Position numbers and translations under genes: made by a program
NCBI GenBank assembly: GCA_029856525.1
Contig: JAHQXC010000020.1
Location: 1 to 18,727 of the forward strand
DNA from: Candidatus Odinarchaeia archaeon
Lineage (GTDB): Archaea > Asgardarchaeota > Odinarchaeia > Odinarchaeales > Odinarchaeaceae
DNA: 18,727 bases
Direction of reading: 5' to 3'
The notes under the pieces: generated by a model
What the model saw: the letters and a program-made list of their open reading frames with translations, nothing else
What the model was told of the DNA's origin: nothing
Database searches by the model: none
Shown: positions 9,900-18,727 of the stretch, piece after piece
Position numbering within the stretch: position 1 is the stretch's first letter
How the letters are laid out: each line of letters opens with the position of its first letter

Positions 9900-10790
9900 T
9901 TACGCGGGGGAGCCGTAACAGTAGTCACAGCTATGTTTACATGAGAAGAAACCTTTATAGCCACCTATATCAATCGACCTGTGGCATGCGCACTCCTCAC
10001 GCTGACCTTTATCTTTAACTTTAGGGAGAGTTATCCCTGTTAAGCGCTCCATTTTAGAAGCGTCGATGCATCTAGAACCCGTAACACCTGGGATTCGAAG
10101 CAGCTCAGGTTGGCAGCAGGCTCTTAAAATTATATTATAACGGTTGCAGATTTCAACTAGCCGGGTGACTATAAGTTTTTTCTCATCTATTGACAGGTTA
10201 ACAGGTATTCTACCTCTTGAAATCATCCGTGAAACAACCTTAGGGTATAATGAGATAAAAGAGAAGACGATTTCAGTTATATTTAAATCAGCGGCTTTTT
10301 TAACAATATATTCAAAAGCGGCTAGATTATTTTTAATCCGTGTTGAACCCGGTGTCTTATAAAAGACTATAGGGTCGAATCTAAGTGTTACAGCCTGGGG
10401 GGTGAACTCTTCTACTAAAAATTTAAGTTGAGAAAGACGCTCCCCTAGACTCGGCTTAACACCCGGCTCAAGCTCGCATGGAGTGTTAATAGTAAACTGG
10501 AAGAAATGCCCTTTATAAGCGTTGAAAACCTCCGGGGTCTCGTAAAAGCTTTTAATCCATGCGCTGAAATCTTTAGACCACCAAACCCAGCATTTAACAA
10601 CTGATGGTTTAAGCGTAACCCTGGAGACTATGCTAGGATTGAAAGGATTTCTAACATCAACGTAACCTGTCTTAATCCTATCTAAAACCCAGCTCATATG
10701 ATGAGCTGGTATATCAGTTCTACGTGAACATGAGATCACAGGGTATTCTATAACCCTCATTTTATTCGAAGACAGCAGCATTCCAACCAC
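9900..10790 (-). CDS. DUF1848 family protein (SPL-related radical-SAM-like, with C-terminal CxxxCxxC)
   Basis: ISCSRRTDIPA, V-x-V-x-NPFNP, WWSK, RFDPI, R-x-x-C-x-C-x-x-S-x-DIG and CKHSCDYCY motifs. The start may be the ATG at 10760. Confidence 0.9.
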   Translation of the reverse strand: MVGMLLSSNKMRVIEYPVISCSRRTDIPAHHMSWVLDRIKTGYVDVRNPFNPSIVSRVTLKPSVVKCWVWWSKDFSAWIKSFYETPEVFNAYKGHFFQFTINTPCELEPGVKPSLGERLSQLKFLVEEFTPQAVTLRFDPIVFYKTPGSTRIKNNLAAFEYIVKKAADLNITEIVFSFISLYPKVVSRMISRGRIPVNLSIDEKKLIVTRLVEICNRYNIILRACCQPELLRIPGVTGSRCIDASKMERLTGITLPKVKDKGQREECACHRSIDIGGYKGFFSCKHSCDYCYGSPA

Positions 10791-15816: not shown

Positions 15817-16401
15817 TTATTTACTCCACCGGATTACAGGACGTTCACCGATGCAGAAGGCGTCTCCTATAGGACCGGTTGACCCGTAATACTTTGAGTC
15901 TATAGGTGAATAAAGGAATGGTAATATCTTACCCCATTCAGGTAATCCTTTCTCATTGAGAGCTGTTTCATCAGCTTTAATATCAATTATTTCTCCAATA
16001 AACATGGTGTGAATACCGATTTCATACGTTTGAATAAGCTTACACTCAGCTATGAGAGGGAATTCTTTTATGAAAGGAGCGTCTACTAAAACACTTTTAA
16101 CAGGTGTGAGGCCTGTGCTCGCGAATTTATCAACCTCTTTACCTGAGAATATGCCTGTGAAATCCGACTGCCATAGAAAATCCTTTGATGGAACGTTCAC
16201 GGTGAACGCTCTTCTACTCATAATATTATGGTAAGTGTAGGTTGCCTTCCTAATCGAGATGTTAACACATGGAGGTTTAGACGAGCATATTCCACCCCAC
16301 GCAACCGCCATAATATTAGGTTTACCCTCCGAGTCGTATGATCCTATAAGCCAAACAGGTGTAGGGATTAGAAAAGGCTTAGCTCCAAGAGACTTCTTCA
16401 T
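15817..16401 (-). CDS. Flavin reductase-like FMN-binding split-barrel protein (flavoredoxin)
   Basis: NIMAVAW, PPCVNIS, T-x-x-NI...FTVN, DAP-x-I-x-E-x-P and G-x-HTMFIGEI motifs. Confidence 0.88.
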   Translation of the reverse strand: MKKSLGAKPFLIPTPVWLIGSYDSEGKPNIMAVAWGGICSSKPPCVNISIRKATYTYHNIMSRRAFTVNVPSKDFLWQSDFTGIFSGKEVDKFASTGLTPVKSVLVDAPFIKEFPLIAECKLIQTYEIGIHTMFIGEIIDIKADETALNEKGLPEWGKILPFLYSPIDSKYYGSTGPIGDAFCIGERPVIRWSK

Positions 16402-16461: not shown

Positions 16462-16962
16462 CTAGTTTTCGCTGACAATGAATAAATTAACGTCAAGCCG
16501 CCTTATTTTCAACGAGTTATCAAGCTCTTTTAAATCCTTTTTAGCTATGAGAAAGTTTTCACCATCCTCGTTTTTAAAAAAATAAGTATTATAGCCGAAT
16601 ATCAATTTAAGCAGCGGGTTCACTAAAAATAAAGGTGTGGACACATAAATATACGCTATAATAGAGTACACTACTATTAAAGCTATTAATGTAGCTGTAT
16701 CTATGAATGTGAGAAACGGTATAAGATAAGTTAATATGAAGGCCGTGTACTCGAATCCGCGTGGTTTTTCAACGGCCAAGCCGGTTAATTCAGAGACTTC
16801 TCCATGCGGTATTAAAAACCTTCTTAAAATTAATATGAAAAGCGCGGCGAACACTATGAAACCTAATATTGTAAATAGGTTGAAACTGAAACGGATAATA
16901 ATCGTGAAAAACAACGGGAGATAAGCTAACATGTAAAGAAGATATTTTAAATACTTATACAA
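16462..16962 (-). CDS. KwaA-like membrane protein (Kiwa anti-phage system component), no adjacent kwaB
   Basis: About 4 TM segments with Y-x-PL at the N-terminus, E-x-x-x-F-x-x-TY-x-IP, IY-x-x-x-x-LF-x-x-NP-x-L-x-x-x-GY-x-x-Y and a C-terminal beta tail (LIAKKDL...RRLD-x-x-LFIV). This matches KwaA as I recall it; not confirmed by a search. Confidence 0.65.
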   Translation of the reverse strand: MYKYLKYLLYMLAYLPLFFTIIIRFSFNLFTILGFIVFAALFILILRRFLIPHGEVSELTGLAVEKPRGFEYTAFILTYLIPFLTFIDTATLIALIVVYSIIAYIYVSTPLFLVNPLLKLIFGYNTYFFKNEDGENFLIAKKDLKELDNSLKIRRLDVNLFIVSEN

Positions 16963-17015
16963 TCTCTCATACCGCCTTCCATACTCTAATAAGATTAAAT
17001 GAATTTATATAAGTG

Positions 17016-17159
17016 TTAATCTTCTTTTTCACTCTTTTTAAGACCTTTCTTTAAACCTCTGCCTGCTGATTTAGCTACACTCCAACCCTTTTTTAAACCT
17101 TCTCCAACGGTTTCCCCGACTTTCTCAGCTTTACTCTTCTTCTCTTTACCCTCGCTCAT
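17016..17159 (-). CDS. 47-aa Lys/Gly-rich amphipathic microprotein (not in the ORF track)
   Basis: Hand translation MSEGKEKKSKAEKVGETVGEGLKKGWSVAKSAGRGLKKGLKKSEKED*; AGGTGA Shine-Dalgarno 5 nt upstream of the ATG. Confidence 0.75.
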   Translation of the reverse strand: MSEGKEKKSKAEKVGETVGEGLKKGWSVAKSAGRGLKKGLKKSEKED

Positions 17160-17280
17160 ATAGTTCACCTATAATAATATGTTCTATTTAATTTTTTAAT
17201 TAATATTTTATTTTTTCAACTGAGTAATAAATTTAGCTTGAAGTAATATTAACCTGTTTAAAATTTAGCGTTTTAACTTA

Positions 17281-17308
17281 ATTTAACTAACTAAATGTTA
17301 GGTTAAAT
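17281..17308. promoter_or_regulatory. dif-like 11-6-11 imperfect inverted repeat just upstream of the integrase (candidate recombinase core site or operator)
   Basis: ATTTAACTAAC-TAAATG-TTAGGTTAAAT. The outer 7 bp are perfectly inverted, and the right arm is 10/11 identical to the E. coli XerD arm TTATGTTAAAT. Confidence 0.4.
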
Positions 17309-17337
17309 TTAAATAATATTTCAACCTATGTTTACTT

Positions 17338-18453
17338 ATGGCTAAGCTTAAACCTGTATTTGAAGAAGAGCGGGTAAATAGCTTTCTAAACTTTTTTAAA
17401 GGTAAAACAGAGAAAGCTTATAGAACTGCGTTAAAAATCTTCTTAGACTTCTATAGGGAAAAACACGGGGATAAAGCTACGATAAGTGAATTCTTGAAAG
17501 CAATATATGAAGATTGGAGGAGAGACATTTCACAGCAGGAGAGAATCGCTGAGAACACTCTTCAACAATTCATAAACTATCTAAGCGAGAAAGGTAAATC
17601 CCCTAAGACTATCAGCACTTATATCGGGGGAATACAAAGCTTCCTAAAATACTGTAACATACCCGTATCAACAAGGTTTATTAAAAAACCTTACCCGGTG
17701 CCGTTAAAAAAGAATAGTAAAATAGTTTGGTCGATACCTAAATTGAAAAAATTCGTTGAATCAGCTTCAAACTACAGGGATAAAGCTATAATCATGTGCT
17801 TGTTCCAGTCAGGGCTTGGTGTAAATGAATTGTGTTCTTTAAACTATGGGGATATAAAGGAGGAATATGAAGCCGGTGTTTTACCTTTATGCGTTAACAT
17901 AACCCGTAAAAAATCCGGAGTTCAACATTACACGTTCTTCGGTAGAGACGCTGTCTTCTACCTGAGAAGATATCTTGAAACCAGGGGTAAAATAGAATAT
18001 GATGAACCTTTATTCCTAGCTAAGAAAAATGAACGTATAACCCCTGCAAGTGTTGAGATGATGTTCAAACGGTTAGCTAAAAGATGCGACTTCATACCGA
18101 AAGAGCAATTAGAAGACGGCTATAACCCTGCTAGACCCCACAGTTTAAGAACAGCGTTTAGAACAATACTCAGCGACGCCGGGTTAAACGAAAACTACAT
18201 AGAGTTTTTCATGGGTCACGCTATACCTGAACAGAAAAAAGCTTATTTAAACAAGTCTATAGACTCATGGAGAGAAACATACCAGAAATTCGAAGAATAT
18301 CTTAGCATAGAGAAGACAAGCAGAGAAGAAAGCCTTGAAACGATAGACCAAGTTATGAATTATATAGCGCAGGACCCTAGGTTCCAGCAAGTAGTAAAAG
18401 AAATATTAGAAGAGAAAGGATACAAGAAAATATTAAATAATGTTTCAAATTAA
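17338..18453 (+). CDS. Tyrosine recombinase / integrase of mobile-element type
   Basis: N-terminal SAM-like core-binding region (SPKTISTY), box I RDKAII...SGLGVNEL, H268-x-x-R271, MGH294 and Y303. Confidence 0.92.
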   Translation: MAKLKPVFEEERVNSFLNFFKGKTEKAYRTALKIFLDFYREKHGDKATISEFLKAIYEDWRRDISQQERIAENTLQQFINYLSEKGKSPKTISTYIGGIQSFLKYCNIPVSTRFIKKPYPVPLKKNSKIVWSIPKLKKFVESASNYRDKAIIMCLFQSGLGVNELCSLNYGDIKEEYEAGVLPLCVNITRKKSGVQHYTFFGRDAVFYLRRYLETRGKIEYDEPLFLAKKNERITPASVEMMFKRLAKRCDFIPKEQLEDGYNPARPHSLRTAFRTILSDAGLNENYIEFFMGHAIPEQKKAYLNKSIDSWRETYQKFEEYLSIEKTSREESLETIDQVMNYIAQDPRFQQVVKEILEEKGYKKILNNVSN

Positions 18454-18473
18454 GATTACAGCTTTAAACTAAT

Positions 18474-18583
18474 ATGGTTTGTAACGAGTGTAACGAATGT
18501 AACACTTTTTCTCTCTTGGAGGGTAGTGTATTTATCCATGGTTTGTAACACTTGTAACAGATGTAACACTTTCTTCTCTCTGG
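18474..18583 (+). repeat. Two 46-bp direct repeats (period 64), each containing 3 x TGTAAC at a 9-bp period
   Basis: 18474-18519 ATGGTTTGTAACGAGTGTAACGAATGTAACACTTTTTCTCTCTTGG and 18538-18583 ATGGTTTGTAACACTTGTAACAGATGTAACACTTTCTTCTCTCTGG. Confidence 0.9.
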
Positions 18584-18660
18584 GGGGTGAATTCTATAAG
18601 TGAAGTGGAAAATGGAAGCCCCTATTTTATCTCCTACCATCCTAAACCTGTTAAGCGCTA

Positions 18661-18678
18661 CTGCCCCACGTGGGGCAG
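18661..18678. repeat. Perfect 18-bp GC-rich palindrome
   Basis: CTGCCCCACGTGGGGCAG is identical to its own reverse complement. Confidence 0.95.
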
Positions 18679-18727
18679 GAGTTGTTATTTTCAAACTAGA
18701 AGGATAACAAGAATATTTTCCGTTTAA

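Follow-up and report, generated by a model that had tools for sequence, protein, structure and literature searches.

The solo kwaA gene of Odinarchaeum encodes a member of the KwaA family, by HMM and by fold, and it is a true orphan with no assembly split behind it. We consider it probable that this Kiwa-derived protein has been kept as a tetrameric membrane sensor or pore that works independently of KwaB. Kiwa is regarded as a machine of two obligatory proteins: KwaA perceives changes in the membrane, and incoming DNA is captured by KwaB. Defence by E. coli Kiwa needs both proteins, and no output has been demonstrated for KwaA alone. The evolutionary facts presented here on the solo protein are well supported, and the function assigned to it is a hypothesis.

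The stretch of DNA analysed (the window; 18,727 nt) is a whole 18.7-kb contig of genome G000. A preliminary description, made from the letters alone, had reported a KwaA-like protein between a small peptide and a flavoredoxin in an Asgard genome. The Asgard assignment is correct, since the nearest homologues of the protein come from Candidatus Odinarchaeum yellowstonii LCB4 and an Odinarchaeota MAG. The features of the locus are as follows:

15817..16401, minus strand: flavin-reductase-domain protein (PF01613, Pfam E=1e-31), 60 nt downstream of kwaA.
16462..16962, minus strand: solo kwaA-like gene, 166 aa (ORF, PADLOC, AF2, Foldseek, dN/dS).
16963..17015, minus strand: spacer of 53 nt upstream of kwaA; a TATA-like box (TTATATAA) comes right after the peptide stop, and a GGNGG SD-like motif lies ~10 nt before the TTG.
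17016..17168, minus strand: Lys/Gly-rich small protein, 50 aa, or 47 aa from an internal ATG.
17287..18727, plus strand: polymorphic integrase-bearing insertion that runs off the contig end, outside the kwaA locus.
17338-18453: XerA-like tyrosine recombinase gene within the insertion, 376 nt upstream of kwaA.

The flavoredoxin reported 60 nt downstream is the PF01613 protein, and the 47-aa upstream peptide is present in the longer or shorter form given above. The window kwaA begins with TTG, and the starts of its two orthologues, GTG and TTG, fall at the same alignment position; because these starts align, the 166-aa form is preferred to the 156-aa version with an ATG start in the protein database. 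Weak start codons throughout (TTG, GTG, TTG) would fit low expression of Odinarchaeum kwaA. To judge from its motifs, the 53-nt spacer probably contains kwaA's own promoter, with the predicted TATA box at about 17004-17011.

Eight PADLOC KwaA models matched the window protein (best PDLC00213, E=5e-16). The NCBIfam KwaA equivalog NF041622 matched it with E=2e-10 and 40.6 bits, below its cut-off of 100 bits; at the sequence level, the protein is a KwaA family member and not an NF041622 equivalog. The precomputed database Pfam label is PF28043 KwaA, and our Pfam-A scan, in a copy apparently without the PF28043 model, gave no match. The top PDB sequence match was KwaA 9mrg (E=0.03), and in the alignment the KwaA motifs quoted in the preliminary description come close to the PDB KwaA sequence. 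All invariant or near-invariant residues of the family (31 members) are kept in the solo protein: Y14, P16, L17, T78, Y79, P82, Y106, N115, P116, L118 and Y124. Fused or longer homologues were searched for and none were found.

An AlphaFold2 model with the 31-sequence family alignment as input (pLDDT 88.1, pTM 0.80) placed helices at residues 3-25, 29-49, 70-85 and 89-108. Strands in the TM2-TM3 loop (51-68) and in the C-terminal part (125-163) form a cytoplasmic beta-barrel. The model agrees with the ∼4 TM segments and the beta-rich C-tail of the preliminary description, and the ORF and all the motifs quoted there are present. When the model was compared with the PDB by Foldseek, the best seven matches were all KwaA chains (9mrx, 9mrr and 9mrg; probability 1.0, TM 0.59-0.67), and the next match reached only E=0.3. 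Both checks proposed for KwaA likeness, the PADLOC KwaA HMMs and the Foldseek search against the KwaA structure, were thus positive.

To look for KwaB, four genomes of the genus were searched, G000 and in addition G001-G003; by its coordinates, G002 is the closed, single-contig 1.418-Mb LCB4 chromosome (CP091871.1). Six queries were used: PF16162, PDLC00224, PDLC00228, PDLC00223, PDLC00235 and a profile from the divergent KwaBs of the closest KwaA relatives. PF16162 was also silent in all 14 control genomes, and therefore the PADLOC KwaB models and KwaB-carrying Asgard control genomes were added. As positive controls, PDLC00235 detects KwaB in Asgard genome G068, PDLC00228 in G067 and PDLC00223 in G162. 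None of the six profiles gave a credible KwaB match in the four Odinarchaeum genomes, one of them closed, and the earlier observation that no KwaB-sized ORF lies near the window kwaA was confirmed. The weak PDLC00235 matches seen in all four genomes (12-18 bits) were rejected as spurious, as they fall in a 65-residue stretch within a class I aminoacyl-tRNA synthetase. These matches (in G000 on contig C22, L029, 2217-4712) are a false-positive trap for KwaB searches.

An ordinary Kiwa with an unassembled kwaB could be imagined for a genome of 1.32 Mb in 127 contigs (93% complete), in a window that ends 274 nt past the integrase gene. However, the gene downstream of kwaA is assembled and is the flavin reductase, and closed G002 has the same arrangement with KwaB nowhere in the chromosome. 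The split kwaA-kwaB pair that would have contradicted the preliminary description was accordingly not found, and a split contig is refuted for practical purposes. No kwaB (DUF4868) accompanies Odinarchaeum kwaA in an operon, and the protein is filed in the KwaA family, outside the Kiwa system (KwaA plus KwaB).

The order of genes in the window is that of G001 and G002: FtsX/MacB ABC genes, a 48-aa peptide, the KwaA-like gene, the flavin reductase, an MFS gene and an ArsB/CitMHS-type permease. The small Lys/Gly-rich protein is 70-73% identical in the two orthologous loci. In G003, the peptide gene is followed by ∼350 nt of AT-rich non-coding DNA and then by the flavin reductase and MFS genes, and neither kwaA nor a recognisable remnant of it was detected in the peptide-reductase gap. 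kwaA is therefore dispensable, because G003 does without it. The location is not that of a defence island or mobile element with a patchy, horizontally acquired distribution; the neighbourhood is of the housekeeping type and is syntenic in three species.

Four co-directional genes, separated by ∼50-70-nt spacers and kept in the same order in three species, might form a local module in which KwaA acts with the Lys/Gly-rich peptide, the flavin reductase and/or the MFS transporter. We regard this as highly improbable. G003 keeps the peptide, reductase and MFS genes without KwaA; the peptide is also found in G004-G006, genomes of a sister genus that lack KwaA, where its gene has different surroundings; and the TATA-like and SD-like motifs upstream of the flavin reductase gene are conserved in all four Odinarchaeum genomes. 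In addition, a variant contig of G000 (C112) has kwaA without the peptide gene, and none of the genes adjoining kwaA has a PADLOC match. The peptide, reductase and MFS protein are excluded as dedicated partners because they are kept in G003 without KwaA and because the reductase and kwaA have promoter-like motifs of their own. Of the two possibilities raised in the preliminary description, a stand-alone or a re-partnered KwaA, the former is borne out by the failure to find KwaB in four genomes, and re-partnering with the flanking genes is not, as these neighbours persist without KwaA.

Several observations on the neighbourhood deserve mention. Apart from KwaA, the sole PADLOC match in the window is a DUF1848 protein (9900-10790), ∼5.7 kb away, which matches 'RTasDUF1848' (DRT accessory; E=2e-40). 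It is probably not a defence gene here, lying in a DUF763 / HhH / DUF1848 block that is syntenic in related genomes. The Lys/Gly-rich protein (47-50 aa; core GLKKGW..AKSAGRGLKKG) is conserved in two Odinarchaeia genera in differing gene contexts (L036-L039), and it has no family match in Pfam, NCBIfam or PADLOC. Contig C112 (L011, 1.66 kb; 1-345 vs. window 16799-17011) joins the kwaA N-terminus and a 49-nt spacer to the FtsX upstream region, keeping exactly the kwaA upstream stretch, to window 17011. The junction omits the peptide gene and ∼31 nt, and C112 represents either a variant with a deletion or a chimeric assembly joined at a short A/T-rich microhomology.

The KwaA-like gene had been placed beside an integrase. 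A recombinase gene is indeed present, but it belongs to a separate insertion beyond the peptide gene. In the one public sequencing run that contains this DNA, the kwaA region lies on a 2988-nt contig at depth 16.4, and the integrase region has a depth of ∼5. This majority contig is identical to the window up to 17286 and then, after 31 nt, enters FtsX upstream sequence (L041), a junction that is the ancestral arrangement. Because of the difference in depth, and because the majority contig diverges at this point, the integrase is read as a minority polymorphic insertion with its left edge at 17286/17287. Between this edge and the kwaA start lie 324 nt, which include the conserved peptide gene. 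Internal 50-nt repeats follow the integrase gene (18474-18587), and a 30-nt stretch (18659-18688) is an exact match to G000 contig C53 (3218-3247).

Selection on the gene was analysed in the three species that carry it. The window protein is 73% and 60% identical to its two orthologues (57-73% across the three species), and TM3-TM4 is 82% identical vs. 62% overall among the three orthologues. Pairwise dN/dS was 0.16-0.23 for kwaA at dS 0.7-1.8, and 0.05-0.13 for the flanking genes. Odinarchaeum kwaA is under purifying selection, looser than that on its neighbours (dN/dS about twice theirs).

These values bear on whether the gene is a decaying, non-functional Kiwa remnant, truncated when kwaB was lost, possibly via a mobile element. 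An integrase lies upstream in the window, one species of the genus (G003) is without the gene and the kwaA dN/dS exceeds that of the neighbours, all of which speak for such decay. However, three species and several metagenome contigs have an intact ORF, its dN/dS stays low over a long divergence, the family-invariant residues are all kept and the 53-72-nt spacer before the flavin reductase gene has no trace of kwaB. In two of the three species, an integrase is missing at this locus, and in the population of the window it is a minority insertion. We consider decay very improbable. The proposal of a Kiwa remnant truncated at the edge of a mobile element, put forward in the preliminary description, is rejected, the insertion beginning beyond a conserved gene in a locus syntenic in three species and under purifying selection.

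Among the four genomes, G003 has diverged most (78-79% vs. 84-87% identity in three flanking proteins). The most economical account would be that kwaA was inserted once, after the peptide gene and ahead of the reductase promoter, in an ancestor shared by G000, G001 and G002. The polarity of gain vs. loss rests on G003 being the most divergent genome and on the sister genus having the peptide without KwaA. ArsB of the sister genus, considered as a root for the genus, was too divergent (36% identity) and has paralogues.

To place the solo protein in the wider family, an exhaustive HMMER search with KwaA was performed, which returned 298 cluster representatives at E<=1e-3, and a quick maximum-likelihood tree of 72 sequences was built (SH-aLRT supports, midpoint root). 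Together with P0005, a KwaA homologue of 195 aa from a JGI metagenome contig, the three Odinarchaeum KwaAs form a clade (SH-aLRT 96). The KwaB-paired P0006 and P0007 group with it (support 88), within a support-100 clade that contains further paired KwaAs. The solo state is derived from paired Kiwa, given a root elsewhere in the tree, a direction that depends on the midpoint root of a quick tree.

The neighbourhood survey suggested at the outset covered 400 Asgard genomes, 351 of another archaeal phylum and 401 of the phylum of a Clostridia MAG. Outside the Odinarchaeum clade, 30 KwaA loci were compared (3 Asgard, 15 from the other archaeal phylum, 4 from the Clostridia-MAG phylum and 8 from metagenomes or MAGs). 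An overlapping or abutting same-strand gene of KwaB size (269-367 aa) lies beside kwaA in 29 of them, and its identity as KwaB was confirmed in 25 of those 29 by PADLOC, Pfam, phmmer or homology to confirmed partners. The Odinarchaeum-clade KwaAs are solo, and the sole exception among the other 30 loci is P0005, sister of that clade; a further homologue search from P0005 found no more members. Judged against these 30 loci, the solo state is rare and confined to one small clade.

P0005 (L012) is 40% identical to Odinarchaeum KwaA and shares with it the lack of a kwaB directly downstream (the next gene is convergent) and neighbours of the housekeeping type. It comes, however, from a different organism (31.5% GC; neighbouring genes at most 45% identical to those of G000) and has a C-terminal extension, and its contig ends 145 nt downstream, so that its orphan status is less secure. 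The nearest KwaAs outside the solo clade are those of the archaeal or clostridial kwaAB pairs L013, L015, L018, L019, L020 and L042, with 29-38% identity and similar length. In contrast to the Odinarchaeum gene, they have an overlapping KwaB of 312-329 aa, weakly or not detected by standard models.

In L018 (3458-7745), L019 (3199-7739) and L042 (1-6507), kwaAB is nested in a type I restriction-modification operon, with hsdS on one side and hsdM or hsdR on the other, and one nested archaeal pair has a HEPN gene directly upstream. The KwaB of the nested archaeal pairs is so divergent that Pfam and PADLOC miss or barely detect it. Separately, a 100-aa ORF in the Asgard locus L027 (G187:C6, 1408-1710) matches only the first ∼70 KwaA residues (E=1e-4) and may be a fragment or pseudogene.

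E. coli KwaA forms a tetramer via interface I, and its beta-barrel is the docking platform for KwaB (bioRxiv 10.1101/2023.02.26.530102). According to the Kiwa paper, KwaA detects membrane deformation at phage attachment sites. The KwaA of E. coli O55:H7/ECOR49 (9mrg, 9mrr, 9mrx) has the same four TM segments and the same beta-barrel, built from ICL1 and the C-terminus, as the solo protein, and the two share signature residues, including the NPxL motif after TM4. The solo protein is, however, only 20-24% identical to E. coli KwaA, it has no kwaB adjoining or elsewhere in the genome, and it sits in a housekeeping neighbourhood, with no defence island or mobile element, and is inherited vertically within the genus.

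A four-copy prediction of the solo protein gave a putative homotetramer via TM1, TM3 and TM4, as in E. coli KwaA. The ipSAE was 0.51, vs. 0.00 for the best of three controls. In the calibration of the method, 20 of 30 proteins solved as same-chain pairs and 1 of 23 solved as single chains came up to this mark, counts that apply only roughly here, given the protein's own alignment and four copies. Runs agreed in at least 96% of contacts, with a partner pLDDT of at least 72. The predicted interface (residues 16-27, 68-86 and 89-111; TM1/TM3/TM4) matches interface I of E. coli KwaA, and these three segments are also the best-conserved part of the solo protein. Because a like complex, the KwaA tetramer, is already solved, the prediction may simply mirror it and is read as likeness and not as proof.

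In an HMMER alignment, the KwaB-contact residues of E. coli KwaA (K75, N77, Q79, H156, T162, Y181 and F183) have no counterparts in the solo protein. The mismatch is not diagnostic, because close paired relatives also differ at the contact positions of the beta-barrel. Conservation of the beta-barrel and the TM core was 0.47/0.82 in the solo clade vs. 0.38/0.60 in the paired clade. Solo and paired KwaAs cannot be told apart by contact residues or by regional conservation, so that these comparisons cannot show decay of the KwaB-docking surface, nor do they discriminate between an output at the membrane and a partner acting in trans.

Such a partner is the main alternative: KwaA would be a sensor that signals to an unlinked or non-KwaB effector encoded elsewhere in the genome. 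The platform that docks KwaB in E. coli is retained and folds confidently, it is conserved relative to the TM core to a similar degree in both clades, and the Kiwa paper notes that kwaA and kwaB are sometimes transferred independently. Against this, kwaB abuts or overlaps kwaA in all 29 paired loci, no KwaB-like gene is present in any of the four Odinarchaeum genomes, and no candidate partner was found, the neighbours being independent of KwaA. We judge re-partnering in trans to be rather unlikely.

We therefore return to the KwaB-independent tetrameric membrane sensor or pore as the probable function, for which the following course can be proposed. A four-TM KwaA with its beta-barrel would have lost, or never brought along, kwaB. 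Its gene would have become established between two housekeeping genes in an ancestor common to three Odinarchaeum species, and would since have been passed on vertically under purifying selection. The protein would still form a KwaA-type homotetramer via TM1, TM3 and TM4 and would act by itself, as a sensor of membrane perturbation or a pore gated by it. Its trigger would most likely still be virus attachment or membrane stress, and its output, in place of DNA capture by KwaB, may be an ion or lipid leak at the membrane, or a signal to a factor encoded elsewhere. Tentatively, KwaA might even be fully autonomous, a perturbation-gated tetrameric pore that protects or sacrifices the cell upon virus attachment or envelope stress without a DNA-binding effector. 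If so, the 'sensor' half of Kiwa can also be the effector, domesticated chromosomally in Asgard archaea.

A search of the searchable literature returned nothing relevant on solo KwaA or on Kiwa in Odinarchaeia, and the published Kiwa survey took only complete kwaAB operons. These data suggest that (i) a KwaA HMM match is not enough to call a Kiwa system in archaea; (ii) the membrane component can be useful by itself, to judge from the long retention of KwaA alone under purifying selection (dS ∼0.7-1.8) in an Asgard genome that is small and streamlined; and (iii) solo KwaA is a natural test case for the hourglass-shaped KwaA tetramer as a gated channel, which the Kiwa authors put forward as a suggestion only. 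Odinarchaeum KwaA may have a job of its own.
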